A stretch of 64,000 bases of DNA from Gemmatimonadales bacterium (GCA_965250155.1 OZ252291.1:1804024-1868023); one strand, 5' to 3'. Positions 2,997-25,916 are shown, counted from the stretch's first letter. Notes: generated from the letters alone by a model not told the origin. Program-made: numbers and translations.

Positions 2997-3509
2997 ATGC
3001 TTAAAAAGATCACCTTGGCATTAATTGTCTTTACAGCCGCAACATACAGTAACGGCTTCCCTTTAGTGAAACCCATTAAGGATGGAGACCCACCAGTAAT
3101 ATCCGATCTCAAGGTAGATCCCCAGGCAGGCCCTGTAGGAACTACCTACACAATAACCCTCCACATTACAGACCCTCAGGGGCCAGATGATATTGTAAAT
3201 ACCCTCTACCAGGTTAGAGAGAGGTCTGAAGTTATTGAGGTGTTAATCAATGATGAGGGAGTGGATGGTGATATATCGAAAGGTGACGGCATCCATACAG
3301 GAAAAAGTATTGTTCCAAGGACTGCAGCAAAGATAACCCATCTTTTTGAAGTCTTTGTTTTAGACAAAGAAGGGCACAAGAGTAACGTCCTTGAATACCA
3401 TTTCACGGTTCTGGAGGGGTTAGAAAATGGAGTTCCCCCTTCTTCGTGGACGGTTTACAGCTTGAGAATCAAGCAGCAGCGTAGTATTGGCCTCAGCTCA
3501 GGGTTCTAA
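2997..3509 (+). CDS. AT-rich hypothetical secreted protein
   Basis: 170-aa ORF, visibly AT-richer than its surroundings. N-terminal signal-like MLKKITLALIVFTAATYS. The last ~26 codons run into the 85-bp repeat, so the true C-terminus is uncertain. Confidence 0.55.
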   Translation: MLKKITLALIVFTAATYSNGFPLVKPIKDGDPPVISDLKVDPQAGPVGTTYTITLHITDPQGPDDIVNTLYQVRERSEVIEVLINDEGVDGDISKGDGIHTGKSIVPRTAAKITHLFEVFVLDKEGHKSNVLEYHFTVLEGLENGVPPSSWTVYSLRIKQQRSIGLSSGF

Positions 3510-3516
3510 CTGCAGG
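3432..3516 (+). repeat. 85-bp direct repeat, copy 1
   Basis: GTTCCCCCTTCTTCGTGGACGGTTTACAGCTTGAGAATCAAGCAGCAGCGTAGTATTGGCCTCAGCTCAGGGTTCTAACTGCAGG. Identical to 4353-4437 except one base (3436 C vs 4357 T). Confidence 0.95.
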
Positions 3517-3711
3517 CGCAGGCGCGAGGACTTGGGTGAGTGGATGAGCCTTGAGCCACTCGGCCACCTGTCCAAAAGGGCCCGTAGAACAGAACGCCCC
3601 GCCAAAGAGTCCAAGCTCCTCGCGCTAGCTCGTAGCCCCGAGCCGATCGATCAGGTGGAGCAGCTGCTCGGGCCCGGGTCCCGCGGAGAGGCGCATATGC
3701 CCGCCCCAGGA

Positions 3712-4350
3712 TCACCCTCCCCTCTCGTCTTTCCACAGCGTCTCCCCCTTGATAAGCCAGGAGACACCGAAGGCCCACAACGCCACGGACTCCAACAAGA
3801 GCACGGGCTTGATCCTGCCGATGCCAGTGTCCTCGAGAAGTGTGTAGTACAGGGCGATCAAAGCAATGCACGCCAGCATGATCATGCCGCATACCACGTA
3901 GATCTTGTTCCGAGTCCTCTTCTCCGGGGTGGGGGTGCCGCCTTGCTTGGTCTTGGTAAAGAGGAACAAGGAAAAGTACGACAACACGAGGAAAAATGCC
4001 GCTGCGGACGCGAAGTGCACGGTCCGTATCAGCTCGTTCTCACTGGTGGTTGGAAACAGAGCCACACCCAGGACGAAGAGGCAGCTCAAGTCGCCGGCGA
4101 CGTCGTCCTTGCGCTCATAGCCCCTGTACGAGAACAAGAACCACCCGATGACGAACAGGACGCCCACGAAAACATCGCGCATCCTGGTGTCGTAATAGTC
4201 GCTGATCGAATCTCGGAGCTCGGTGCACGAGCCCAGAACGAAGCAGCCGACCGCCAACAGCACGGGCAGCAGAACGCCCAGGATCCCCACCATCCGTCTC
4301 AGGGTCAGATAGGATGCGAGCACCCGCGGGAGGTCATTGTTCTCATACAT
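3712..4350 (-). CDS. multi-pass integral membrane protein, unknown function
   Basis: 212 aa with about 6 hydrophobic segments and the motif SISDYYDTRMRDVFVGVLFVIGWFLFSYRGY. The whole gene sits between the two 85-bp repeat copies. Confidence 0.65.
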   Translation of the reverse strand: MYENNDLPRVLASYLTLRRMVGILGVLLPVLLAVGCFVLGSCTELRDSISDYYDTRMRDVFVGVLFVIGWFLFSYRGYERKDDVAGDLSCLFVLGVALFPTTSENELIRTVHFASAAAFFLVLSYFSLFLFTKTKQGGTPTPEKRTRNKIYVVCGMIMLACIALIALYYTLLEDTGIGRIKPVLLLESVALWAFGVSWLIKGETLWKDERGG

Positions 4351-4352
4351 AG

Positions 4353-4437
4353 GTTCTCCCTTCTTCGTGGACGGTTTACAGCTTGAGAATCAAGCAGCAG
4401 CGTAGTATTGGCCTCAGCTCAGGGTTCTAACTGCAGG
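4353..4437 (+). repeat. 85-bp direct repeat, copy 2
   Basis: See 3432-3516. It starts 2 nt beyond the start codon of the minus-strand gene 3712..4350. Confidence 0.95.
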
Positions 4438-5658: not shown

Positions 5659-6324
5659 ATGAGCGGCAAGAGCATCAAGACGCTGGCTGACCAGTTGTGG
5701 AAGAACCACGGCGTCTCGCTCATCACCACGTTCGACAGCGGGATCGTGCCGGGATCGGTGCTCGAGCGGCGGAGCTGGAACGACATCTCCCGGGTGGGGC
5801 ACCTGAAGGACGGGGTCAAGGCCGCAGATCTTCCTGACGTAGAAGGGCCCGTGCCCTGCATGCTGGCCGATTTCCGGCGCTCCCACGAGATGAACATCGA
5901 CGCCGCCCTGCGCCTGCTACAGCCCACCGACGCTGGCGCCGAGTCCCAGTTCAAGCGGGCCACCGAGGCCGTGGCCACGTTCGACGCTCCCGTCATCTAC
6001 AGCATGAGTCTCCTTGCTATCGAAGACGCCATAGAGTCCCAGCCGGCGCCCTTCTGGGACAGGGCGCTCGGCCAGTGGCTCAAGGACGGCAAGACGCGGG
6101 TCGTGTACCAGGTTATCCGGAGTCGGCTCACGTTCATCTTCCGCGGTGCGGGTGGCAGGGGACTCAACCTCAGGGCGGTGCTGGGGCCCCTCGGCGGCCT
6201 GGGCCTCGGCGGACAGTGGCGCTGGCGCAACGAGGGAACGATAGAGTCGAAGCGGGAGTTGGTGGTGGCGGTGGAGGCGGGGAAATACAACAATGGGAAG
6301 AAGCGGTTCGAGTCGGCTAGGTAG
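5659..6324 (+). CDS. gasdermin-like pore-forming protein candidate (tentative); otherwise hypothetical
   Basis: ATG at 5659 is preceded by AAAGGGGG. 221 aa with no enzymatic motif. Segment order GVSLITTFDSGIVPGSVLE / ADFRRSHEMNIDAAL / FKRATEAVATFDAPVIYSMSLLAIEDAI / VVYQVIRSRLTFIFRG / Gly-rich LGPLGGLGLGGQWRWRNEG / LVVAVEAGKY resembles bacterial gasdermin N-domains as I remember them. Confidence 0.35.
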   Translation: MSGKSIKTLADQLWKNHGVSLITTFDSGIVPGSVLERRSWNDISRVGHLKDGVKAADLPDVEGPVPCMLADFRRSHEMNIDAALRLLQPTDAGAESQFKRATEAVATFDAPVIYSMSLLAIEDAIESQPAPFWDRALGQWLKDGKTRVVYQVIRSRLTFIFRGAGGRGLNLRAVLGPLGGLGLGGQWRWRNEGTIESKRELVVAVEAGKYNNGKKRFESAR

Positions 6325-6368
6325 GGCGTGCGGAGCCGGGGCCGAGCGGTGGCGTTGGCTAACGGATG
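6106..6368 (+). repeat. proximal copy of a long direct repeat (3' end of gene 5659..6324 plus 44 nt); attL-like
   Basis: 6106-6138 and 6209-6368 recur at 22238-22429 in the same orientation. By my count there are about 8 mismatches and 1 indel over 193 aligned nt. Confidence 0.9.
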
Positions 6369-6582
6369 CCGACCCCATCATGAAGCTGCACCTCCGGGAT
6401 CTCACGGTCCTAGCGGAATTGAATGGGGTTCAGGGGGTCGCCGGTTGACGCCCGCTCCTCCCTCCCCCGCCGCTCGCGTCCGCTCTGTGCGCACTCGAAC
6501 CCGCGGTTCTCGGGCGCACGACGTGTCGAATCCGGCCGTCCCGACTGGGGTAAGTCAAACAATCAGAAGTAGTTACGAAATG

Positions 6583-6611
6583 AGCGGTCAGTGAATCGCC
6601 GCTCGTTTTTT
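6583..6611 (+). terminator. rho-independent terminator
   Basis: GAGCGG (6583-6588), an 11-nt loop, CCGCTC (6599-6604), then G + TTTTTT (6606-6611). Confidence 0.65.
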
Positions 6612-6617
6612 GTGCTA

Positions 6618-6635
6618 GTGTGCCAATAGTGTGCC
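6618..6635. promoter_or_regulatory. tandem motif GTGTGCCAATA-GTGTGCC, conserved at 24090-24107
   Basis: Identical 18-mer at two sites, each 100-135 nt upstream of a plus-strand start codon (res at 6769, K+ channel at 24210). Confidence 0.45.
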
Positions 6636-6768
6636 AAATTCCCTTGGCCGTCTCGCGGGTGACCGCGACCACTCCTATCTTAACCAACCATGCACCAGGG
6701 CGCCGGTTCTGGATTACCCTCGCCGACCGCCACAAGATCGAACGCATACTTAGTCGAAAAACAGCTCA

Positions 6769-9700
6769 ATGAGCGAATCCTTCTTCGAAAAACCAATCCT
6801 CAACTCTCCGTACGAGTACCCAGCCCGCCACTGGGAACTCGACGACTCCGGTCAACCCACCAGCCGCATTGTCGAAAAGCGCCGCCCCGTCTCCTTTATC
6901 ACCCCCATACCCAAACCCAAGAAACGCAGGCGGGATGAACAAAAGGAGATGGTCCTTGACGAGGGCAAAGGCATCTCAACCGAAGAGCAGCAGTACGACC
7001 CCACACCTATTATCAACGCGCTGCGCGTCCACGTGGACCGCTGGCGGGCGTTGCCCAACCCGCGGGACTGGAAAGTTACGCCCGAGACCGCGCGACTACT
7101 GGAATACTGGCGTAGTCATGAGTTTCAGAGCATCCGCCCGTTCTTCTGTCAGGTCGAGGCCGTCGAGACCGCGATCTGGCTCATAGAGGTGGCACCCAAG
7201 GCGGGCAAGACCGGAAAGGGCTTGTTGGGACATCTCGCCGCGGCCAACGAAGTTTCCAATCCGGGGCTCGCACGGCTGGCGTTGAAGCTGGCCACCGGCG
7301 CTGGCAAGACGACCGTCATGGCGATGCTGATCGCTTGGCAAACCGTCAACGCTGTCCGCCGGCCCAGCAGCAAGAAGTTCACGCGCGGATTCCTCCTCGT
7401 GACTCCCGGCATCACGATCCGCGACCGGCTGCGTGTCCTCCAGCCCAACGACCCGGACAGTTATTTCAAGACCCTCGAGCTGGTACCCAACGACATGCTG
7501 GGCGACCTCGACCGGGCGAAGATCGTGATCACGAATTACCACGCCTTCAAGCTGCGCGAGAAGTTGGAGCTGTCCAAGGGAGGCCGTTCGCTGCTCCAAG
7601 GCCGTGGTGCTCCCCTGGAGACGTTGGAGACGGAAGGACAGATGCTACAGCGGGTAATGCCAGAATTGATGGGGATGAAGAATATCCTCGTGCTGAACGA
7701 CGAGGCGCACCACTGCTACCGGGAGCGACCGGGGAGTGGGGAGGATGAAGCTCTGAAAGGTGATGACCGGAAGGAGGCTGAAAAGAACAAAGAGGTGGCC
7801 CGTCTGTGGATTTCTGGCATCGAGGCCGTAACCCGAAAGATCGGCGTGCCCCAGATCATTGATCTGTCCGCCACGCCGTTCTTCCTGCGCGGCTCGGGCT
7901 ATGCCGAGGGGACGTTATTCCCGTGGACGATGAGCGACTTCTCTCTGATGGATGCGATCGAGTGCGGCATCGTGAAGCTGCCCCGCGTGCCTGTGTCGGA
8001 CAACATACCTGGCGAGGACATGCCCAAGTTCCGTAATCTTTGGGAACACATCCGTAACAAGATGCCGAAGAAAGGTCGCGGAAAGGCGAAGACCTTGGAT
8101 CCGCTGAGCCTGCCCGTGGAGTTACAGACCGCGCTCCAGGCCTTGTACGGCCACTACAAGAAGACATACGAGCTGTGGCAAGATGAGGGAATCTCGATTC
8201 CTCCTTGCTTCATCGTGGTGTGCAACAACACGTCCACATCGAAGTTGGTGTACGACTTCATCTCGGGCTTTCATCGAGAGAACCCCGACGGCTCGACATC
8301 GCTAGAGAACGGGCGCCTCGCCCTGTTCCGGAACTTCGATGAGCACGGCAATCCGTTTGCTCGTCCCCATACGCTGCTCATCGACTCGGAACAACTCGAG
8401 TCGGGAGATGCCTTGGACAAGAACTTCAGAAACGTTGCGGCGGACGAGATTGAGCGGTTCCGGCGTGAGATCAGGGAGCGCGAAGGACCGCAGGCCGGAG
8501 ACAAGATTACGGATCAAGATCTCCTCCGCGAGGCGATGAACACGGTCGGAAAGAAGGATCGCTTGGGCGAACGCATTCGGTGCGTGGTATCGGTCTCGAT
8601 GTTGACGGAGGGCTGGGATACCAACACCGTGACTCACGTCCTCGGCGTTCGGGCCTTTGGCACCCAACTACTCTGCGAACAGGTGATCGGCCGCGCGTTG
8701 CGCCGTCAGTCCTATGATCTAAACGAAAAAAGTCTCTTCAATGTCGAGTATGCCGACATCTTGGGAATTCCCTTCGATTTCACGGCCGAGCCGATCAAGG
8801 TCAAGCCGATACCGCCCCGCGAAACGGTTCAGGTGAACGCCGTACGTCCCGATCGTGACCATCTCGAAATTCGCTTCCCGCGGGTTGAGGGGTACCGCAT
8901 CGAGCTTCCCGAAGAGAGGCTCACCGCAGAATTCAATGAAGATTCCGTGCTCGAATTAACGCCCGATCTCGTGGGTCCTTCGGTGACGCACAACCAGGGC
9001 ATCCTGGGCGAGGGAGTCGATCTGAGCCTCATGCATCTCGAGGACGTACGAGCCTCGACAGTGCTCTTCAACGTGACCAAGCGTTTGCTCTACACGAAGT
9101 GGCGGGACCCCGGCGAGGAGCCCAAGCTCCATCTGTTTGGCCAGCTCAAGCGCATCACGCGCCAGTGGTTGGACACCTGTCTGGTTTGCAAGGGCGGGAC
9201 GTACCCGGCCCAACTGCTCTACCAGGAACTGGCGGACATGGCGTGCGAGCGGATCACGATGGGGATTACGACAAGCATGGCGGACGAGACGCCTGTGAAG
9301 GCTCTCCTCGACCCGTACAACCCGGCGGGATCAACGAACCACGTCAATTTTAACACCTCGAAGCGGACCCGTTGGGAGACTGATCATCGGCGCTGCCACA
9401 TCAATTGGGTGGTATGCGACAGTGACTGGGAAGCTGAGTTCTGCCGGGTGGCCGAGTCGCATCCCAAGGTGCTCCGCTATGTAAAGAACCAGGGCTTCGG
9501 CCTAGAGGTGCCCTATCGGATGGGGTCAGAATCCAAGAAGTACATCCCCGACTTTATCGTGGTGGTGGACCTGGGGGACGGAAAGGAGCTGAACTTCATT
9601 GTCGAGATCAAAGGCTATCGGCGTGAAAATGCTAAAGTAAAGAAAGAAACGATGATGGCTTACTGGGTGCCGGGTGTTAATCATTCAGGTCAATTTGGCC

Positions 9701-9804
9701 GGTGGGCGTTCGCCGAGCTGAAAGACGTGTACGAGATCGCGTCGGAGTTCGGCCAGATCGTCGAGGACGCGTGCAACCAGACAGAGCCCGGGCGGCGGCG
9801 TTGA
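6769..9804 (+). CDS. res: Type III-like restriction enzyme Res subunit (SF2 DEAH helicase with C-terminal PD-(D/E)xK nuclease)
   Basis: 1011 aa. Walker A LATGAGKTTVMAMLIAW, DEAH box LNDEAHHCY, motif VSMLTEGWDTNTVTHV, motif VI QVIGRALRR, nuclease-like YIPDFIVVVD...FIVEIKGY near the C-terminus. Confidence 0.85.
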   Translation: MSESFFEKPILNSPYEYPARHWELDDSGQPTSRIVEKRRPVSFITPIPKPKKRRRDEQKEMVLDEGKGISTEEQQYDPTPIINALRVHVDRWRALPNPRDWKVTPETARLLEYWRSHEFQSIRPFFCQVEAVETAIWLIEVAPKAGKTGKGLLGHLAAANEVSNPGLARLALKLATGAGKTTVMAMLIAWQTVNAVRRPSSKKFTRGFLLVTPGITIRDRLRVLQPNDPDSYFKTLELVPNDMLGDLDRAKIVITNYHAFKLREKLELSKGGRSLLQGRGAPLETLETEGQMLQRVMPELMGMKNILVLNDEAHHCYRERPGSGEDEALKGDDRKEAEKNKEVARLWISGIEAVTRKIGVPQIIDLSATPFFLRGSGYAEGTLFPWTMSDFSLMDAIECGIVKLPRVPVSDNIPGEDMPKFRNLWEHIRNKMPKKGRGKAKTLDPLSLPVELQTALQALYGHYKKTYELWQDEGISIPPCFIVVCNNTSTSKLVYDFISGFHRENPDGSTSLENGRLALFRNFDEHGNPFARPHTLLIDSEQLESGDALDKNFRNVAADEIERFRREIREREGPQAGDKITDQDLLREAMNTVGKKDRLGERIRCVVSVSMLTEGWDTNTVTHVLGVRAFGTQLLCEQVIGRALRRQSYDLNEKSLFNVEYADILGIPFDFTAEPIKVKPIPPRETVQVNAVRPDRDHLEIRFPRVEGYRIELPEERLTAEFNEDSVLELTPDLVGPSVTHNQGILGEGVDLSLMHLEDVRASTVLFNVTKRLLYTKWRDPGEEPKLHLFGQLKRITRQWLDTCLVCKGGTYPAQLLYQELADMACERITMGITTSMADETPVKALLDPYNPAGSTNHVNFNTSKRTRWETDHRRCHINWVVCDSDWEAEFCRVAESHPKVLRYVKNQGFGLEVPYRMGSESKKYIPDFIVVVDLGDGKELNFIVEIKGYRRENAKVKKETMMAYWVPGVNHSGQFGRWAFAELKDVYEIASEFGQIVEDACNQTEPGRRR

Positions 9805-9826
9805 CGACGGGTGGTAAGGAAGGGTA

Positions 9827-12628
9827 ATGGCAAAGAAAAAGAGTAGCCGAAAGAAGGCCCCGAAGCAGGTAGAGACGCTCACCCACGACGAGGCGAAGCG
9901 CGCATATATCCCCACGGCCGAGTATCAGCCGATGATGGTGAAGGAGCCGCCGTTGCGTGTGGCGTACGAGCGGCGGAACCGGGACCTAGATCCCCAGCTC
10001 GTGTGGCGCGGCAAGGACGTTCAGAATTGGTCCGATCTCGTGGTGCATGCGCCGCCGCTCTATATACAGGAAAAGGTTCACCCCAAGGTGTTGGTTGACG
10101 ATCTGGTGAGGCGTACAACAGAAAGCGCCGGCGACGAGGCAACGGAGGAGCTAGATCTGTTCGCCGATTTCAACGGCGTGCCCGACGAGGTGAAGACGAC
10201 GGAGTTTTATCAGCACGACGCTAACTGGACTAACCGGCTGATTCTGGGGGACAGCCTGCAGGTGATGGCGTCGTTGGCGGAGCGGGAGGGATTACGAGGC
10301 AAGGTGCAGTGCATTTATGTCGATCCGCCGTACGGGATCAAGTTCAACTCAAATTTTCAGTGGTCGACGACGAGTCGGGATGTAAAGGATGGCAAGACTG
10401 ATCATATCACGCGTGAGCCGGAGCAGGTCAAAGCGTTTCGCGACACCTGGAGGGACGGGATTCATTCGTATCTTACCTACCTCCGTGATCGACTCTCCGT
10501 GGGTCGCGACCTCCTTGCAAACTCTGGTTCCATTTTTATCCAGATTGGTAATGAGAACGTACACAGAGTCCGTGCTCTTATGGACGAGGTATTCGGAATT
10601 GATAACTTTGTCAGCGAGGTGGCATTTTCGAAAACTACGGGTCAGACGAGTGAACTGCTTCCCTCCGCAGTAGATTTTTTGCTGTGGTATGCAAAAGATA
10701 GATCTCTCGTGAAATTTCGAAGACCACTTCGTCGAAAAATCGTTGGCGGTGAGGGAGCAGTGGTCTACACTCAGATCGAAGACGAGCGCTTGATGCGACG
10801 GCGGATGACCCTTGGGGAATTGAAAGAAGGAGGAAGCAGCGGGCGGATTTTTGCGACATCTGATTTGAGAAGCCAAAGTGGCGGAGAGGCTACTGCTTTT
10901 GAGGTCAAGTTCCAGGGTACAACGTTTACTCCCGAAAAGGGGTTCTGGAAGACAAGTCAATTGGGGTTCGAAAGGTTGATGCAGGCTAATCGAATTACTA
11001 CAAGCGGGTCGACGATACGATATATGAGATACTTTGAAGATAGTCCAGTCTATGGTTTCACAAATGTTTGGGGTGACACTGGGACCGGGAGCTTTACAGA
11101 GGAAAAGATATATGTGGTACAAACCGGTACGAAAACTATAGAGCGGTGTATTTCAATGGTCACGGACCCCGGGGATTTGGTTTTTGATCCCACCTGCGGT
11201 TCAGGAACCACCGCCTATGTTGCCGAACAATGGGGCCGCCGCTGGATTACGATCGACACGTCCCGAGTGGCTCTTGCTCTTGCTCGCGCCCGCATCATGG
11301 GCGCCCGTTACCCATACTACCTCTTGTCCGACAGTCGAGACGGACAACAAAAGGAAGCGGAAATTACGCGCACTGTTCCGTCGGAAGCCCCGACCCACGG
11401 AGACATACGCCACGGATTTGTATACGAGCGGGTACCACATATTACCCTCAAGTCGATCGCAAACAATGCCGAGATTGATGTCATCTGGGAGTCATACGAA
11501 AAAAAACTGGAACCATCACGGGAAAAATTGAACAAGGCGCTCAAGCAAGAGTGGGAGGAGTGGGAAATACCGCGGGACGCGGAAGCTTCCTGGGGATCCG
11601 AGGCCAATAAGCTCCATGCCGAGTGGTGGCAGAACCGGCTCGCTCGGCAAAAGGAGATCGACAAGTCAATCGCCGCCAAGGCGGAGTTCGAGTGTCTCTA
11701 CGACAAACCATACGGGGACAAATCCAAGGTCCGCGTGGCGGGACCGTTCACCGTCGAGAGTGTCTCACCCCACCGCGTGCTCGGCGTAGACGAAGACGAC
11801 GAACTGATCGATGAGGCCGAAAACAAGAAAGGCGGAGGCAGTGACCGCCTGGACTTTGCACAGATGATCCTCGATCACCTAAAAACTTCCGGCGTCCAGC
11901 AGGCCCACAAAGAAGACAAGATCGAGTTCGCGTCCATCGCCCCGTGGCCCGGGCAGTACGTCTGCGCCGAGGGCCGATATATGGAAGGCAACGGGAACGG
12001 CAGTGTGGAGAAACGGGCGGGGATATTCATCGGCCCTGAGTTTGGCACCGTGTCGCGGCCGGATCTGGTCGCGGCCGCCAGAGAGGCGGGGGACGCTGAC
12101 TTCGATGTACTCGTCGCGTGCGCATTCAACTACGACGCCCATTCTGCGGAGTTCGACAAACTCGGCCGTATCCCCGTGCTAAAGGCCCGCATGAACGCCG
12201 ATCTCCACATGGCCGAGGACCTCAAAAATACGGGCAAGGGCAATCTGTTCGTCATCTTTGGCGAGCCGGACATCGACATCTTAGACGCGGAAGACGGCCA
12301 AATCCATGTGAAAATCAACGGCGTGGACGTGTTCCACCCGCAGACGGGAGAGGTTCACAGCGACGGCGCCGATGGGATCGCTTGCTGGTTCGTCGATACG
12401 GACTATAACGAAGAGAGTTTTTTCGTCCGCCACGCATATTTCCTCGGCGCCAACGATCCATACAAGGCCCTCAAGACCACGCTTAAGGCGGAGATCAACG
12501 AGGAGGCGTGGGAAACCCTTCACAGCGACACGTCTCGGCCCTTTGATAAGCCGAAGTCGGGACGGATTGCCGTGAAGGTGATTAATCATCTCGGGGATGA
12601 GGTGATGAAGGTGTTTAAGGTGGAGTGA
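9827..12628 (+). CDS. mod: site-specific DNA methyltransferase (N6-A/N4-C, beta-class order) with a long C-terminal extension
   Basis: 933 aa. Catalytic IYVDPPYGIKFNSNF lies upstream of the SAM motif VFDPTCGSGTTAYVAEQWGRRWITID. About 430 aa follow the catalytic core. It begins 23 nt after the res stop. Confidence 0.85.
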   Translation: MAKKKSSRKKAPKQVETLTHDEAKRAYIPTAEYQPMMVKEPPLRVAYERRNRDLDPQLVWRGKDVQNWSDLVVHAPPLYIQEKVHPKVLVDDLVRRTTESAGDEATEELDLFADFNGVPDEVKTTEFYQHDANWTNRLILGDSLQVMASLAEREGLRGKVQCIYVDPPYGIKFNSNFQWSTTSRDVKDGKTDHITREPEQVKAFRDTWRDGIHSYLTYLRDRLSVGRDLLANSGSIFIQIGNENVHRVRALMDEVFGIDNFVSEVAFSKTTGQTSELLPSAVDFLLWYAKDRSLVKFRRPLRRKIVGGEGAVVYTQIEDERLMRRRMTLGELKEGGSSGRIFATSDLRSQSGGEATAFEVKFQGTTFTPEKGFWKTSQLGFERLMQANRITTSGSTIRYMRYFEDSPVYGFTNVWGDTGTGSFTEEKIYVVQTGTKTIERCISMVTDPGDLVFDPTCGSGTTAYVAEQWGRRWITIDTSRVALALARARIMGARYPYYLLSDSRDGQQKEAEITRTVPSEAPTHGDIRHGFVYERVPHITLKSIANNAEIDVIWESYEKKLEPSREKLNKALKQEWEEWEIPRDAEASWGSEANKLHAEWWQNRLARQKEIDKSIAAKAEFECLYDKPYGDKSKVRVAGPFTVESVSPHRVLGVDEDDELIDEAENKKGGGSDRLDFAQMILDHLKTSGVQQAHKEDKIEFASIAPWPGQYVCAEGRYMEGNGNGSVEKRAGIFIGPEFGTVSRPDLVAAAREAGDADFDVLVACAFNYDAHSAEFDKLGRIPVLKARMNADLHMAEDLKNTGKGNLFVIFGEPDIDILDAEDGQIHVKINGVDVFHPQTGEVHSDGADGIACWFVDTDYNEESFFVRHAYFLGANDPYKALKTTLKAEINEEAWETLHSDTSRPFDKPKSGRIAVKVINHLGDEVMKVFKVE

Positions 12629-14721
12629 TGGAATTCCGCATTGCGGATACCTTCACTGATAGCCTCGCCAAACTGACCGGCGACGAGCAGAAGGCCGTGA
12701 AGACCACGGCCTTCGACCTGCAATTGAACCCGGCCAACCCCGGCATGCGGTTCCACCGTCTCGACCGAGCCAGAGACCCCAACTTCTGGTCCGTTCGGGT
12801 CAGTGACGACATCCGGCTGATCGTTCACAAATCTGACGCCAACCTGCTGCTCTGCTACGTCGCCCATCACGACGATGCGTACCGCTGGGGCGGGCGTCGG
12901 AAGATCGAACGACACCCCAAAACCGGCGCGGCGCAGCTGGTCGAGGTCCGCGAGACGGTAAAAGAAATCACCGTCCCCAGATACGTAGAGGTGCAAGAGC
13001 CGGTTCCTCCGAAGCCCCTCTTCGCCGACGTTCCCGAGGAAGCTCTGCTCGCATATGGCGTTCCCGCCGAGTGGATCGACGATGTGTTAACGGTAAACGA
13101 GGACACGCTGTTCGAGCTGGCGGAACACTTGCCGGGAGAAGCGGCCGAGGCATTGCTCGATCTGGCCACGGGCGTGACGCCTCAGGTCGCCCCGAAGGTC
13201 GCGGCAGACCAGGATCCCTTCGAGCATCCAGACGCCCTCCGCCGATTCCGGGTGATGACAAACGTCGAGGAGTTGGAACGTGCGCTCGAAGCGCCCTGGG
13301 AACGATGGACAGTGTTTCTTCACCCCGCACAGCAGCACATTGTGGAGGGAAACTACAGTGGCCCGGCGCGAGTAGCTGGCTCCGCGGGGACGGGCAAGAC
13401 TATCGTAGCACTTCACCGTTCGGTGTACCTCGCACGGAAGCACGCCGACGCTCGCGTGCTCCTGACCACCTTCTCAGAGACCCTTGCCAACGCGCTGCGG
13501 CGTAGGCTCAACCTGTTGATCGGAAACGAGCCGAAGATCGCAGAGCGCCTCGAAGTGCACTCGATCAACGGCATCGGGCGACGGCTGTACGAAACCAATG
13601 TGGGTCCCGCGCACGTCGCCACACCGGAGCAGATCCGAACGATGTTGCGCGACGCATCGGCCGAGGGGCCCGTTCAGAAGTTCAGCCCTCACTTCCTGTC
13701 GAAAGAATGGTCGGAAGTCGTGGACGCCTGGCAACTCCGCACGTGGGAGCAATATCGCGATGTCAGACGCCTCGGCCGTAAGACACGTCTTGCGGAGACC
13801 CAGAGGGAAATCCTATGGGCGGTCTTCGAGAAGGTCCGGGCCGCGTTGGCGGACGCGGATCTCCAGACCCAATCGAATTTGTTAGATCAGGTGGCGGCCA
13901 AGTTGACCGACGCCCGCCACCCAGCTTTCGGGTTCGCCGTGATCGACGAATCGCAGGACATCGGCGTTGCTGAACTTCGCTTCCTCGCTGCCCTCGGCGG
14001 GGATCGGCCTAACGCCCTGTTCTTCGCCGGTGACCTAGGTCAGCGCATTTTCCAACAACCATACTCCTGGAAGGCGCTCGGCGTCGACGTGCGCGGGCGG
14101 TCCAAGAGGCTGCGTATCAACTACCGCACATCTCACCAAATCCGTCTATATGCGGACCGGTTGCTGGGGCCGGAGGTGTCGGATGTCGACGGTATCACGG
14201 ACGATCGTCGTGGGACGGTATCGGTGTTCAACGGTCCCAACCCCTCAATAGATCTCTTCGACAACCCAGGCGAAGAGGGTGAGGCCGTCGCCCGGTGGAT
14301 CGGCGACCGCCTGGCCCACGATCTGCAACCACACGAAATAGCGCTGTTCGTGCGCTCGCCCGGCGAAATGGATCGCGCCCGTGCGGCGGTGGAGCCTCTT
14401 GGCGTCCCCACGGTCTCTTTGGATGGAGGGATGCAAACCCGGCGGGGCTCCCTGTCCCTGGCCACGATGCACCTCGCCAAGGGGTTGGAGTTCCGGGCTG
14501 TCTGTGTCATGGCCTGCGACGACGAGATCATACCGCTACAGGAGCGGATAGAGTCGGTGACGGATGATTCTGATTTGGACGATGTATACCAGACGGAACG
14601 GCACCTGCTGTATGTAGCTTGCACGCGTGCGCGGGACAATCTGCTAGTCACTGGCGTGATCCCCGGCTCTGAGTTCCTACAGGACTTGGAGGGCAACGGA
14701 ATGAGCTCAGGATCTATTTGA
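12628..14721 (+). CDS. UvrD/Rep-type SF1 helicase with N-terminal RelE/ParE-fold domain
   Basis: ATG at 12628 overlaps the mod stop (TGATG); a GTG at 12625 is also possible. The N-terminal ~90 aa (FHRLDRARDPNFWSVRVSDDIRLIVHKSDANLLLCYVAHHDDAY) look like a RelE/ParE toxin fold. These are followed by GSAGTGKTIVALHR (Walker A), VIDESQD, and a UvrD_C end LHLAKGLEFRAV...LLYVACTRARDNL. Confidence 0.8.
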   Translation: MEFRIADTFTDSLAKLTGDEQKAVKTTAFDLQLNPANPGMRFHRLDRARDPNFWSVRVSDDIRLIVHKSDANLLLCYVAHHDDAYRWGGRRKIERHPKTGAAQLVEVRETVKEITVPRYVEVQEPVPPKPLFADVPEEALLAYGVPAEWIDDVLTVNEDTLFELAEHLPGEAAEALLDLATGVTPQVAPKVAADQDPFEHPDALRRFRVMTNVEELERALEAPWERWTVFLHPAQQHIVEGNYSGPARVAGSAGTGKTIVALHRSVYLARKHADARVLLTTFSETLANALRRRLNLLIGNEPKIAERLEVHSINGIGRRLYETNVGPAHVATPEQIRTMLRDASAEGPVQKFSPHFLSKEWSEVVDAWQLRTWEQYRDVRRLGRKTRLAETQREILWAVFEKVRAALADADLQTQSNLLDQVAAKLTDARHPAFGFAVIDESQDIGVAELRFLAALGGDRPNALFFAGDLGQRIFQQPYSWKALGVDVRGRSKRLRINYRTSHQIRLYADRLLGPEVSDVDGITDDRRGTVSVFNGPNPSIDLFDNPGEEGEAVARWIGDRLAHDLQPHEIALFVRSPGEMDRARAAVEPLGVPTVSLDGGMQTRRGSLSLATMHLAKGLEFRAVCVMACDDEIIPLQERIESVTDDSDLDDVYQTERHLLYVACTRARDNLLVTGVIPGSEFLQDLEGNGMSSGSI

Positions 14722-14937: not shown

Positions 14938-15681
14938 ATGGCGATTTTCGAGGTTGGCGATGAGGCAATTCGACCTGTTGAACTGACGTCATTCGGAGCA
15001 GCAGGCCTGAAGGAACGAACCGATCTACAACGTCTGCTGCGTGACCAGGTGGGCGTGGTGGCCCCGGATGTGTTGGTGATCGCCGAAGAGTTTGGAGAAT
15101 GGACAGAGTCACGACGGAGGGTAGATCTGCTTGGCGTCGATAAAGATGCCAATCTCGTTGTTATCGAACTGAAGCGGACGGATGACGGTGGACACATGGA
15201 ACTTCAGGCGGTGCGATATGCCGCGATGGTATCAACCCTGACGGCAGAGCGCGCCGTTGAAATCTTCGGTCAGTACTTGCATGCACGGGGGCGTGAGGAA
15301 GATGCCCAACAGACGCTTCTCGATTTTCTGGAATGGGATGAACTGGACGAGGATAGATTTGGGCAAGATGTTCGCCTCGTGCTGGTTTCCGCCGATTTTT
15401 CGCGCGAGCTAACCACTGCCGTCATGTGGTTGAGTGAAAAAGATCTGGATATCTGGTGCGTACGCATCCGACCGTATACCTACGAGGGGCGAACGCTAAT
15501 CGATGTGCAGCAGGTCCTACCCCTCCCGGAGGCCGCGGACTACCAGGTTCAAGTGCGCGAAAAGAAGCGGCAAGAACGCCGTGCTCGAAAGGTGGTATCG
15601 ACTTTACACGCTTTGATCTCACCATCGCGGAAAAAACGTATGGGCATCAGTGGAAGCGCAACGCCATCTTGCTTGTTGTGA
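14938..15681 (+). CDS. PD-(D/E)xK (NucS/DUF91-like) nuclease family protein, N-terminal part of an apparently split gene
   Basis: RRVDLLGVDKDANLVVIELKR is a D..(D/E)xK core, followed by HMELQAVRYAAMVS. Family-like sequence continues in the frame of ORF 15456..16016 after the A-run at 15588-15590. Confidence 0.6.
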   Translation: MAIFEVGDEAIRPVELTSFGAAGLKERTDLQRLLRDQVGVVAPDVLVIAEEFGEWTESRRRVDLLGVDKDANLVVIELKRTDDGGHMELQAVRYAAMVSTLTAERAVEIFGQYLHARGREEDAQQTLLDFLEWDELDEDRFGQDVRLVLVSADFSRELTTAVMWLSEKDLDIWCVRIRPYTYEGRTLIDVQQVLPLPEAADYQVQVREKKRQERRARKVVSTLHALISPSRKKRMGISGSATPSCLL

Positions 15682-24209: not shown

Positions 24210-25916
24210 ATGAAGACCATCGGCTCCCATCTGGCCACGCTGCTCACGGGGGAAGCCAAACTGCGCCGGCAGCTCGCGCCGTTCGTGAAATACGTGGTCC
24301 TCCTCGTCGCGGTCGTTTTGCTCTACGGCTGGCTGTTCCACGCGATCATGGCGCGGGAAGGTCAGGACCACTCGTGGTTCACGGGAGTCTATTGGGCGCT
24401 CACCGTGATGAGCACCCTCGGCTTCGGTGATATCACGTTCGAGAGCGACCTGGGCCGCGCGTTCAGCACCCTCGTGCTGCTGACCGGCATGGTGCTGCTC
24501 CTCATCATCCTCCCGTTCCTCTTCATCCGCGTTGTGTACGCCCCGTGGCTCGAGCAGCGGAGCCGCGGCCGCATCCGCTCGCTACAGTCGGTGCCGGAAG
24601 GCCTCGCGGGTCACGTGCTGATTTGCGCCAACGATCCCATTGCGCCCGGGCTCATCCGCCGCCTTCAACTGGCGGACGTGCCGGTCTATGTGATCGAGCC
24701 CGACGCCGACCTTGCGATGCACATGCAGGATGTCGGCACGCCGGTCTTCATGGGCGAGGTCGACTCCGTCGAGACCTACCGAGCCGCCCGAGTGGCGCGG
24801 GCTCGCCTCGTCCTGGCCAACGTATCGGACACGGTCAACTCCAACATTGTCCTCACCGTGCGCGAGCTGTCCGAATCGGTGCCGATCGTCGCGCTGGCCG
24901 AAGTGGAAGACTCGATCGACGTGCTGGAGCTCAGCGGCGCCACGCACGTGCTGCCCCTCACGCACCAACTTGGCGAGCACCTCGCCAACCGGGTGAGCGC
25001 GGGGACGTCGCACGCCAACGTGATCGGCAAATTCCATGACCTGCTGCTCGCCGAGTTCCCGGTGCACGACACGCCGTTCCGGGGCCGGACCATCCGCGAC
25101 ACACGGTTGCGCGAGTTTACCGGGGCCACGATCGTCGGGGTGTGGGAGCGTGGGCGGTTCCACCCCGCCCGGCCGGACCTCGAACTGTCGCCGCTCAGCG
25201 TGCCGGTCGTAATCGGCACGCCCGAGCAGATCGCGGAGCTGGACGAAGTGCTCGTGATATACGACGCCAATCCGAATCCGGTGCTCATCGTCGGCGGCGG
25301 CAAGGTGGGGCGGGCCGCCGCTGCGGCTCTCAAGCGGCGGGAGGTCCCCGTGCATATGGTGGAACGCAACCCGGAACTGGAGCCACAGATCGTGAGCATT
25401 CCCGACCGGTTGTTTCTGGGCGACGCCGCCGACCGGCGCGTACTTGACGCAGCGGGGATCGCCGAGACACCGTGCGTCTTGCTCACGACGCACGACGATG
25501 CGATGAACGTCTACCTGACGGTGTACTGCCGGCGGCTCAATCCCGACGCGCGTATCCTCACCCGGGTCACGCACGAGCGGAACGTCGAGGCCATCCAGCG
25601 CGCCGGCGCCGACTTCGTCTTGAGCTACGCGTCCTTAGGGGTGCAGATGGTGTACTCGATCGTGCAGGGACGGGAGCTCGTCGTGCTGGGCGAGGGCGTT
25701 GATCTCTTCTACGTGCCGCTCCCGCCGTCGCTCGCGGACAAGACGCTCGCCAGCGCGGGGATCGGCGCGCGCACCGGCCTGAACGTGATCGGCGTCCAGA
25801 AGGACGGGCAGATCGTCACGAATCTGCCGCCCGACCAGCGGCTAGTTAAGGGCTCGATGCTCGTCGCCCTGGGCAGCGCGGAGCAGCGGGAGCGCTTCGG
25901 CGCCGTCTACGACTAG
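24210..25916 (+). CDS. potassium channel with two RCK/TrkA-N domains
   Basis: 568 aa. Selectivity filter TVMSTLGFGD, two Rossmann-like GxGxxG regions (VLICAND.., LIVGGGKVGRAAA). Confidence 0.8.
   Translation: MKTIGSHLATLLTGEAKLRRQLAPFVKYVVLLVAVVLLYGWLFHAIMAREGQDHSWFTGVYWALTVMSTLGFGDITFESDLGRAFSTLVLLTGMVLLLIILPFLFIRVVYAPWLEQRSRGRIRSLQSVPEGLAGHVLICANDPIAPGLIRRLQLADVPVYVIEPDADLAMHMQDVGTPVFMGEVDSVETYRAARVARARLVLANVSDTVNSNIVLTVRELSESVPIVALAEVEDSIDVLELSGATHVLPLTHQLGEHLANRVSAGTSHANVIGKFHDLLLAEFPVHDTPFRGRTIRDTRLREFTGATIVGVWERGRFHPARPDLELSPLSVPVVIGTPEQIAELDEVLVIYDANPNPVLIVGGGKVGRAAAAALKRREVPVHMVERNPELEPQIVSIPDRLFLGDAADRRVLDAAGIAETPCVLLTTHDDAMNVYLTVYCRRLNPDARILTRVTHERNVEAIQRAGADFVLSYASLGVQMVYSIVQGRELVVLGEGVDLFYVPLPPSLADKTLASAGIGARTGLNVIGVQKDGQIVTNLPPDQRLVKGSMLVALGSAEQRERFGAVYD

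Follow-up and report, generated by a model that had tools for sequence, protein, structure and literature searches.

We examined a 64,000-nt stretch of DNA from Gemmatimonadales bacterium (GCA_965250155.1 OZ252291.1:1804024-1868023), which we refer to as the window. It contains three intact, same-strand open reading frames that encode a Type III-like restriction enzyme (Res), a long DNA methyltransferase (Mod), and a UvrD-like helicase (Hel). The features of this locus are listed in the table below. A first-pass annotation of the sequence had described these three genes as a single operon, and this observation was confirmed: the genes, the res-mod spacer, and the overlap between mod and the helicase gene are exactly as it described, and its domain calls hold. 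One small correction is that the helicase gene was listed as starting at a GTG at 12625, which gives a protein of 698 amino acids. Because every homolog begins with MEFRIADTF, the true start is the ATG at 12628 (697 amino acids). We did not find any promoter-like site on the + strand inside the operon, and terminator-like sites were no more frequent than in shuffled sequence (10 found versus 8.6 expected).

Features of the res-mod-helicase locus. Positions are counted from the first nucleotide of the window; aa, position in the encoded protein.
Position	Strand	Feature	Evidence and details
6106..6368	+	Left copy of a ~260-nt direct repeat	Repeat search and alignment; the right copy (22238-22429) is 98-100% identical and has a 70-nt deletion
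6616..6637	+	Tandem 11-nt repeat TAGTGTGCCAA x2 in the 170-nt leader upstream of res; candidate promoter or operator element	2 matches in the window versus 0.05 expected; a terminator-like hairpin of the preceding unit is at 6584-6599
6769..9804	+	res, 1011 aa: SF2 ATPase plus PD-(D/E)xK endonuclease, BPTD_3080 family	NCBIfam NF046055, 1354.9 bits versus a cutoff of 800, residues 6-996; Pfam ResIII (127-371) and RE_endonuc (880-962); Walker A TGAGKT (aa 176-181, nt 7294-7311); DEAH (aa 311-314, the first four residues of the DEAHH match, nt 7699-7713); nuclease PD...EIK (aa 927-949, nt 9547-9615)
9805..9826	+	22-nt res-mod spacer; cargo slot 1 in other loci	AAGGAAGG Shine-Dalgarno sequence before the ATG of mod
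9827..12628	+	mod, 933 aa: beta-class N6A/N4C DNA methyltransferase	PADLOC MTase_III PDLC03632 (983 positions), matched almost end to end, 1425 bits, covering 48-932 of 933; Pfam N6_N4_Mtase (160-484); motif IV DPPY (aa 166-169) and motif I FDPTCGSGTT (aa 453-462); EcoP15I Mod (PDB 4zcf), E 9.6e-13
10637..11086	+	Hypervariable target-recognition region of Mod (aa ~271-420)	Identity to 65 homologs of 0.22-0.39, versus 0.82-0.95 in the flanking catalytic motifs
11309..12625	+	Conserved C-terminal extension of Mod (aa 495-933)	Identity of 0.45-0.93, mostly above 0.7; outside any Pfam model
12626..12630	+	TGATG overlap of the mod stop (TGA, 12626-12628) and the helicase start (ATG, 12628-12630), by one base; cargo slot 2 in other loci	
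12628..14721	+	ArmD-like helicase gene, 697 aa	
12628..12951	+	Predicted RelE/ParE-fold domain (aa 1-108)	AlphaFold pLDDT ~90; Foldseek versus PDB, TM up to 0.75, prob 1.0; Pfam HigB-like, E 0.029; R63...H81-D82-x-A84-Y85 conserved in this clade and in ARMADA ArmD
12952..13323	+	Linker plus a small helical module (aa 109-232)	AlphaFold helices 137-180, pLDDT 85-90; linker 110-124, pLDDT below 50
13324..14655	+	UvrD-type SF1 helicase core (aa 233-676)	Pfam UvrD-helicase/UvrD_C; Walker A GSAGTGKT (251-258); Walker B DESQD (440-444); motif VI CTRARD (665-670)

Both Res and Mod belong to families that have already been curated (NF046055 in NCBIfam and PDLC03632 in PADLOC), so these two genes are not novel in themselves, a point that the first-pass annotation missed. 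In Mod, the hypervariable region lies between conserved motifs IV and I, which is the signature of a diversifying restriction-modification (R-M) specificity. In contrast, the C-terminal extension of about 440 residues (the first-pass annotation estimated about 430) is conserved, and it is not the recognition domain. The AlphaFold model of this extension was too poor to use (pLDDT 45.6).

The first-pass annotation also missed the N-terminal domain of the helicase. The top Foldseek hits for the predicted structure of this domain are RelE, YoeB, YafQ, and ParE, with the TM-score of 0.75 being to RelE from Thermus thermophilus, and Cami1 was a hit as well. As in the RelE/YoeB/YafQ/HigB toxins, there is a basic residue on strand 3 and a His...Tyr pair at the start of the C-terminal helix. 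However, sequence similarity to these toxins is marginal, and the domain is fused to a helicase of 590 amino acids instead of being a free-standing toxin of about 90 amino acids. There is no separate antitoxin gene; the start of the helicase gene overlaps the stop of mod. All of the SF1 motifs of the helicase are intact.

To test if the helicase is linked to Res and Mod, we examined the genomic neighborhoods of its homologs. The first-pass annotation had proposed that a random distribution of these homologs relative to res-mod pairs would argue against its view, and this is not what we found. Of the 47 helicase-anchored genomic loci with at least 8 kb of upstream sequence, 45 (96%) have Res, Mod, and Hel in this order on one strand, and these loci are from at least 15 bacterial phyla. 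This linkage is far beyond chance. The two exceptions are degraded loci: one has an IS transposase directly upstream, and the other has only a cargo remnant left. Among 29 Mod-anchored metagenomic loci, the helicase lies downstream in 23 (at least 79%), and Res lies upstream of Mod in 26 of 26. About a fifth of the Mod-anchored loci show no helicase within 7-10 kb. More distant members of the BPTD_3080 family (31-48% identity) lack the helicase, and therefore Res-Mod can stand alone. The same compact trio is found on a conjugative plasmid of Pseudomonas avellanae, where the overlap between the Mod and Hel genes is again one base. Furthermore, the divergence of the helicase tracks that of Res (r = 0.70) and Mod (r = 0.65) at least as well as Res and Mod track each other (r = 0.58; Mantel p = 0.001), although this statistic is inflated by the shared ancestry of the loci.

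In 85% of the loci, the two gene junctions hold embedded defense genes such as IetAS, SIR2-HerA, and GmrSD. These embedded genes turn over freely (212 ORFs fall into 129 families), while the helicase stays fixed at the 3' end. In the window, both slots are empty, and it is the minimal form of a scaffold that usually carries cargo, which the first-pass annotation did not notice.

The helicase is a full-length homolog of ArmD, the last gene of the ARMADA type II system (bioRxiv 10.1101/2025.09.15.676423; mBio 2026, PMC13463889), and this relationship was also missed. By BLASTP, it aligns collinearly (over 5-676, 33% identity, E 8e-105) to the fourth gene, which is the position that ArmD occupies, of a plasmid SNF2-methylase-DEAD helicase-Hel operon in E. 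coli. Relatives at 30-39% identity are the last gene of such operons in E. coli, Thermus, Pseudanabaena, and Tsukamurella. The helicase in the window belongs to a separate clade. Relatives at 47-72% identity lie beside Res-Mod wherever we inspected the flanks. In ARMADA II, deleting armD or mutating its Walker A lysine abolishes defense (PMC12458937; PMC13463889). ARMADA II also combines an SF2 motor, a nuclease, and an adenine methylase, but its other components are not present here. We did not find an ArmC (a YprA-like DEAD/DEAH helicase with DUF1998 and a nuclease) in the operon or its flanks; Res is a ResIII-type protein. Similarly, no SNF2 gene (ArmA, which is BrxHII/Snf2-like) is present, and Mod is a beta-class methyltransferase and not of the Eco57I/PglX type (ArmB is PglX-like). 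Res and Mod are not homologous to ArmA, ArmB, or ArmC.

We also compared the locus to four other kinds of systems. It shares the two-subunit logic of classical Type III R-M (EcoP15I, EcoP1I, and StyLTI): Mod is a beta-class methylase with DPPY before FxGxG and a variable recognition domain between them, and Res has SF2 ATPase motifs followed by a C-terminal PD-(D/E)xK nuclease. The differences that the first-pass annotation listed, which are the res-mod gene order, the long Mod, and the additional SF1 motor, are all real, and there are also the two cargo slots. We found no phase-variation repeats. Res is not recognizably homologous to canonical Type III Res over its length: it matches these models only locally, at the nuclease domain (NF012027 at 17 bits versus a cutoff of 564, E 8e-4; PADLOC REase_III at 16-26 bits, E 7e-7 to 4e-4), and it had no sequence hit in the PDB. 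The best PADLOC hit for the helicase is GajB of Gabija (PDLC00132, 80 bits), which is also a UvrD-like SF1 NTPase that is partnered with a DNA-cutting enzyme. However, the GajB models match only in part, GajB lacks the RelE-like N-terminal domain, and we found no GajA (OLD-family ATPase with a TOPRIM nuclease) among the ORFs scanned between 90 and 22005 or at 24210-25916. Hma is another three-gene scaffold (HmaA helicase, HmaB methylase, and HmaC ATPase) with same-strand defense cassettes nested between its core genes, and its cargo overlaps with that of Res-Mod-Hel (GmrSD-like HEC-05 and ABC-ATPase cassettes). But HmaB is an m5C methyltransferase, Mod is of the N6A/N4C class, and no Hma model was among all three PADLOC hits for Res or the best 25 hits each for Mod and the helicase. 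The study of embedded genes by Payne and colleagues (bioRxiv 10.1101/2024.01.29.577857) reports embedding in Hma, BREX, DISARM, and Type I R-M, but not in this family. Lastly, the N-terminal domain of the helicase shares with RelE-type toxins the fold and the residues described above.

The first-pass annotation suggested that the operon is a composite defense system, and our results support this interpretation; the homology to ArmD strengthens it. With moderate confidence, we propose that the three genes form one co-transcribed anti-phage operon, in which a Type III-like R-M enzyme has an ArmD-like protein as a dedicated accessory and not as a passenger. In this view, Mod would read an asymmetric site through its variable central domain and methylate host DNA, and Res would cut unmethylated incoming DNA. 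The motor would behave like GajB: it would engage the nicks or ends that Res creates in foreign DNA and use ATP to unwind that DNA, which would turn a repairable cut into irreversible loss. Engagement of the motor would license the RelE-like domain to act on RNA, most plausibly invader transcripts or translating mRNA. The gene junctions would double as slots in which other defense genes are carried and co-expressed. The gene structure, the intact catalytic motifs, the conserved synteny, the co-divergence, the homology to ArmD, and the (predicted) RelE fold are what our analysis shows. Physical or functional coupling of the helicase to Res-Mod, activation by DNA ends, and any RNase activity, including ribosome-dependent cleavage of mRNA, are inferred. 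By analogy with Type III R-M, the enzyme may show ATP-dependent cleavage that requires two inversely oriented unmethylated asymmetric sites, with hemimethylation by Mod. The specific roles that the first-pass annotation suggested for the helicase (acting on restriction products or sensing anti-restriction) are only suggestions. Some evidence does not fit this explanation well. No experiment bears on this family and no mechanism for ArmD has been published. ARMADA II was reported to be a direct, non-abortive defense (PMC12458937), which sits awkwardly with a toxin-like RNase output, and the RelE-like residues may serve binding rather than catalysis. Also, because the partners of ArmD are not homologous to Res or Mod, any protein-protein coupling would have had to evolve twice. 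And as noted above, Res-Mod can occur without the helicase.

Another possibility, which we consider unlikely, is that the helicase is a back-up suicide module that resembles PrrC. In this scenario, it would be held silent by the intact Res-Mod complex, and only if a phage anti-restriction protein disabled the enzyme would it cleave mRNA and abort the infection. There is a precedent in PrrC-EcoprrI, and RelE-like effectors such as Cami1 are used elsewhere in immunity. The RelE-fold domain with conserved candidate catalytic residues and no antitoxin gene, the tight linkage and co-divergence with Res and Mod, and the translational coupling to mod are consistent with this idea. However, loss of ArmD abolishes the primary, non-abortive defense of ARMADA II and not just a back-up layer (PMC12458937; PMC13463889), and nothing in our data shows toxicity or a trigger.

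It is more doubtful that the helicase is an independent single-gene defense, that is, the most successful passenger at the 3' end of the operon. The operon does host many autonomous defense systems, the same helicase family attaches to a non-homologous host system (ARMADA II), and Res-Mod occurs without it. But the helicase is fixed in position and co-diverges with Res and Mod while the cargo turns over rapidly, none of the 47 informative helicase loci is free-standing (the two exceptions look like decayed operons), and ArmD alone is not sufficient in ARMADA II, where all four genes are needed (PMC12458937). A role in self-protection or control, in which the helicase would limit autoimmunity (restriction alleviation) or help the system to establish in a new host, for example by stripping Res-Mod from host DNA or by repressing expression through cleavage of mRNA, is improbable: UvrD-type motors do displace proteins from DNA, the helicase has weak NCBIfam similarity to the HelD/HelR RNA-polymerase recycling motors, and the res-first gene order poses an establishment problem that needs some control, but armD deletion strains are viable and simply lose defense (PMC13463889) and our domain searches gave no sign of a regulatory DNA-binding domain.

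More speculatively, and we think this is unlikely although it is not excluded, ArmD-like RelE-UvrD helicases might be portable second-stage effectors that plug into unrelated methylation-based restriction machines (a Type III-like R-M here and ARMADA II elsewhere), sense the DNA ends that those machines make, and couple DNA cleavage to an attack on RNA or translation. The Res-Mod-Hel operon might also be a dedicated carrier of defense cassettes, with the unusually conserved 3' end of mod and 5' end of the helicase gene acting as recombination anchors through which cargo is swapped between distant bacteria.

As for the surroundings of the operon, the two copies of the direct repeat bracket an island of about 16 kb with lower GC content that holds the operon (the GC content dips to 0.52-0.59 within 10-19 kb). 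The only other copy in the window of the tandem repeat from the res leader is at 24090, upstream of a TrkA-type channel gene.

All three ORFs that the first-pass annotation reported are present as it described, on one strand (see the table). The res-mod spacer is 22 nt and contains an AAGGAAGG ribosome-binding site, and the stop codon of mod shares its A with the start codon of the helicase gene, giving TGATG. One start codon needs correction: automated ORF calling begins the helicase one codon earlier, at a GTG, but every homologue starts with MEFRIADTF, so the real product is 697 amino acids. We found no promoter-like site on the + strand within the operon, and terminator-like hairpins are no more common than in shuffled sequence. 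We also found no simple-sequence repeats of the kind that make some Type III mod genes phase-variable, so we rejected a phase-variable mod.

Coordinates of the operon and of neighboring features in the window
Feature	Position	Strand	Remarks
85-nt direct repeat, first copy	3432-3516		99% identical to second copy
ORF flanked by the 85-nt repeat	3487-4386		299 aa; no Pfam match
85-nt direct repeat, second copy	4353-4437
~260-nt direct repeat, left copy	6106-6368		98-100% identical to right copy
Shorter collinear repeat	6423-6441 and 23864-23882
Shorter collinear repeat	6618-6641 and 24090-24113
res	6769-9804	+
mod	9827-12628	+
mod stop codon	12626-12628	+	TGA
Helicase start codon	12628-12630	+	ATG
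Helicase gene	12628-14721	+	697 aa; GTG at 12625 in automated ORF call
ORF directly after the helicase gene	14938-15681		weak NucS_C/HSDR_N-like (PD-(D/E)xK) match
HTH-IrrE/M78-UPF0175 protein	17076-18302		408 aa
DUF2779 / RNase_H-like protein	18849-20327	-	opposite strand
AbiEi antitoxin-like regulator	20477-21106		overlaps the AbiEii gene
AbiEii nucleotidyltransferase toxin gene	21022-22005
~260-nt direct repeat, right copy	22238-22429		70-nt deletion

Res scores 1355 bits, end to end, against the NCBIfam model NF046055 (“BPTD_3080 family restriction endonuclease”), whose cutoff is 800 bits. It carries the Pfam domains ResIII and RE_endonuc, and its Walker A (TGAGKT), DEAH, and PD...EIK motifs are intact. 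Res resembles canonical Type III Res proteins only locally, at the nuclease domain, and a sequence search of the PDB found no relative of known structure.

Mod matches a 983-position Type III methylase model from PADLOC (PDLC03632) at 1425 bits over residues 48-932, so the “long Mod” is an already catalogued form. DPPY is at residues 166-169 and FDPTCGSGTT is at residues 453-462, which is the beta-class order, and the protein aligns to EcoP15I Mod in the PDB. Across 65 complete homologous loci, residues ~271-420 are hypervariable (identity of 0.22-0.39), while the flanking catalytic blocks are 0.82-0.95 identical. This is what a target-recognition domain under diversifying selection looks like, and it argues that this is a working restriction-modification (R-M) system. 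The C-terminal 440 residues are strongly conserved (mostly 0.7-0.93) and match no Pfam family. A structural model of this extension from an alignment of 11 close homologues was too poor to use (pLDDT of 45.6). Many database proteins that cover the whole extension are only ~490-590 amino acids long, even on contigs of 0.5-5 Mb, so in some genomes the mod gene may be split, frameshifted, or called from an internal start.

Residues 233-676 of the helicase are a UvrD-type SF1 core with all motifs intact. The N-terminal 232 residues did not match any Pfam family above threshold; the only hit was a marginal HigB-like one (E = 0.029). Sequence searches of the PDB with the N-terminus, as a single sequence or as a profile, gave nothing relevant. 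However, an AlphaFold model built from 15 homologues is confident for residues 1-108 (pLDDT ~90), and when we compared this model to the PDB with Foldseek, the best hits were the toxins RelE, YoeB, YafQ, and ParE (probability of 1.0, TM up to 0.75). Further down the list is the ribosome-bound CRISPR effector Cami1. JGI annotators had also labelled several homologues as “RelE... / superfamily I helicase.” This predicted domain was missed by the first-pass annotation.

To test if the linkage is real, we ran the check that had been proposed beforehand, which asks whether the helicase occurs at random with respect to res-mod pairs, and we ran it in both directions. First, a scan of one genome per species identified 228 relatives of the helicase, and we retrieved 80 of these loci. 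By our reading of their taxonomy, these come from at least 15 phyla, including Pseudomonadota, Desulfobacterota, Acidobacteriota, Chloroflexota, Planctomycetota, Verrucomicrobiota, Cyanobacteriota, Bacteroidota, Bacillota, Deinococcota, Armatimonadota, and Gemmatimonadota. Of the 47 loci with at least 8 kb of upstream sequence, 45 carry Mod and then Res upstream on the same strand, always in the order Res..Mod..Hel. The two exceptions look like decayed operons: one has an IS transposase directly upstream, and the other retains only a Gabija-like cargo remnant next to a transporter gene. Second, we anchored on Mod in metagenomes. Res was upstream in 26 of 26 loci with enough sequence, and the helicase was downstream in 23 of 29, which is a lower bound because in one locus it lay 8.4 kb away. 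A conjugative plasmid from Pseudomonas avellanae also has the same compact trio, with the same one-base overlap of Mod and Hel. In contrast, on a Tistrella mobilis plasmid (NC_017958.1, 748063-753318; an unannotated record), the helicase homologue lies immediately after Res but on the opposite strand, with no Mod between them; this is a rearranged locus. No relative of the helicase was found in viral contigs, so there is no evidence that phages carry it.

We also asked if the three proteins diverged together. In 65 complete loci, the pairwise divergence of the helicase correlates with that of Res (r = 0.70) and of Mod (r = 0.65), which is at least as strong as the correlation between Res and Mod (r = 0.58; Mantel p = 0.001 for each). 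These values are inflated by shared ancestry. Even so, the helicase has clearly travelled with the other two genes as a unit.

The association has limits. More distant members of the BPTD_3080 family on plasmids (31-48% identity) do not have this helicase. One has Res-Mod alone, one has a toxin-antitoxin pair between Res and Mod, and one has the classical mod-then-res order. Two have other SF1-type genes after the R-M genes (two DUF2075 proteins on a Hymenobacter plasmid and a 1937-aa DUF3320 protein on a Sphingobium plasmid), which hints at a recurrent pairing of this Res family with SF1 motors. Res-Mod can therefore exist without the helicase.

In most loci, the three genes are not adjacent. 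Gaps between Res and Mod range up to 3.7 kb, gaps between Mod and Hel range up to 8.4 kb, and the gaps are filled with same-strand genes. Of 91 loci in which both junctions could be scored, 14 are compact like the window, eight have cargo only between Res and Mod, 24 have cargo only between Mod and Hel, and 45 have cargo at both. The cargo is extremely diverse: the 212 ORFs of at least 120 amino acids fall into 129 families, and 92 of these families were seen just once. It is dominated by recognized defense genes, namely IetA/IetS, SIR2-HerA, GmrSD-like (HEC-05), AbiL, Schlafen/DUF4062 proteins, STAND and NACHT NTPases, a reverse transcriptase, NERD-UvrD, an MmeI-like methylase, and PIN and HicB toxin-antitoxin genes. 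Many of the cargo ORFs have no match in Pfam or PADLOC, and these are candidates for new defense genes by guilt-by-embedding. A recurrent spacing of ~3.5 kb between Mod and Hel looked like a conserved fourth gene, but we rejected this because it is an IetA/IetS cassette that is present in only six of the first 80 loci. Nesting of defense genes within multi-gene systems has been described for Hma, BREX, DISARM, and Type I R-M (bioRxiv 10.1101/2024.01.29.577857), but not for this family. The contrast between the fast turnover of the cargo and the fixed helicase is the main reason that we consider the helicase to be a core component.

We then asked what the helicase is related to. On plasmids, relatives at 47-58% identity lie beside a Res match in the same record in nearly every case. 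We inspected relatives at 30-39% identity in four records (plasmids from E. coli, Thermus, Pseudanabaena, and Tsukamurella). In each, the relative is the last gene of an SNF2 - large methylase - very large DEAD helicase - Hel operon, which is ARMADA type II. The window protein aligns collinearly, over residues 5-676, to the product of the fourth gene of the E. coli plasmid operon (33% identity, E = 8e-105). Within the RelE-like domain, F9, P35, R63, L75, H81, D82, A84, Y85, and G100 are conserved in both clades. An Arg on strand 3 and a His...Tyr pair at the C-terminal helix would be expected of a retained active site, as in RelE and YoeB, although catalysis is inferred from sequence alone. 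In ARMADA II, deleting armD or mutating its Walker A lysine abolishes protection, and the defense was reported as direct rather than abortive; no mechanism for ArmD has been published. A profile of the N-terminal module identified 2,489 clusters (at 50% identity) with E ≤ 1e-10. The module is N-terminal in nearly all of the listed proteins, and full-length proteins are about 690-720 amino acids.

We also considered whether the operon belongs to another described system. It is not Hma, whose methylase is m5C, nor Gabija, as no GajA was found among the ORFs scanned between 90 and 22005 or at 24210-25916, nor DISARM or ARMADA proper, as there is no YprA/DUF1998 helicase in the operon or its flanks.

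The explanation that we favor, and consider to be somewhat more likely than not, is that Res-Mod is a Type III-like enzyme that marks self DNA and cuts unmarked DNA, with the ArmD-like protein as its dedicated accessory. In this view, the accessory is a GajB-like motor that engages the nicks or ends that Res makes and unwinds the invader's DNA, so that a single cut becomes irreversible, and its RelE-like domain would act on RNA only once the motor is engaged. Our analysis establishes the architecture of the operon, the intact motifs, the conserved synteny, the co-divergence, and the homology to an essential component of ARMADA, while the coupling of the helicase to Res-Mod, its activation by DNA ends, and any RNase activity are inferences. 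An alternative, which seems unlikely but survives best, is a PrrC-style back-up that fires when anti-restriction proteins disable the enzyme; this is disfavored by the phenotype of the armD deletion in ARMADA. It is a little less likely that the helicase is an autonomous passenger, given its fixed position, its co-divergence, and the absence of free-standing copies. A self-protection or establishment factor is very unlikely.

Overall, the suggestion in the first-pass annotation that this is a composite system is supported. Res and Mod individually belong to catalogued families. The new elements are the obligate-looking partnership with an ArmD-like RelE-UvrD helicase, the link that this makes between a simple R-M system and ARMADA II, and the cargo-carrying architecture. 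We found no description of any of these in the literature available to us: a search for BPTD_3080 returned nothing, and a review of R-M biology does not mention a Type III-associated helicase. ArmD-like helicases were described only in 2025-26, as the fourth gene of ARMADA II. Finding the same module fixed to a much simpler restriction enzyme reduces the problem to three genes with well-understood partners, so the role of the helicase should be easier to dissect there. The trio is also abundant (228 species-level genome hits and more than 587 metagenome hits), yet current annotation treats it as an ordinary R-M system plus a “3'-5' exonuclease,” which is a large blind spot. Finally, the two cargo slots are a new hunting ground for defense genes and extend the published guilt-by-embedding approach to a host system that it did not cover.

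The operon sits in a ~16-kb stretch of lower GC content that is bracketed by the ~260-nt direct repeat and by the two shorter collinear repeats. An 18-nt motif upstream of res recurs upstream of the gene that follows the island. This suggests a recent insertion or duplication. Searches with Rfam and ARAGORN over 1-26 kb found nothing, so the repeat is not a recognizable tRNA or tmRNA attachment site, and we found no integrase. The rest of the island carries more defense-type genes. The AbiEi/AbiEii genes form a type IV toxin-antitoxin or abortive-infection pair. The HTH-IrrE/M78-UPF0175 protein combines an XRE-type HTH, an IrrE/M78 peptidase domain, and a C-terminal UPF0175 domain, which is the architecture of damage- or phage-responsive regulators that often control neighboring defense genes. 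The weak PD-(D/E)xK-like ORF and the DUF2779 protein are uncharacterized. The 85-nt direct repeat and the ORF that it flanks may be a small mobile or duplicated unit.
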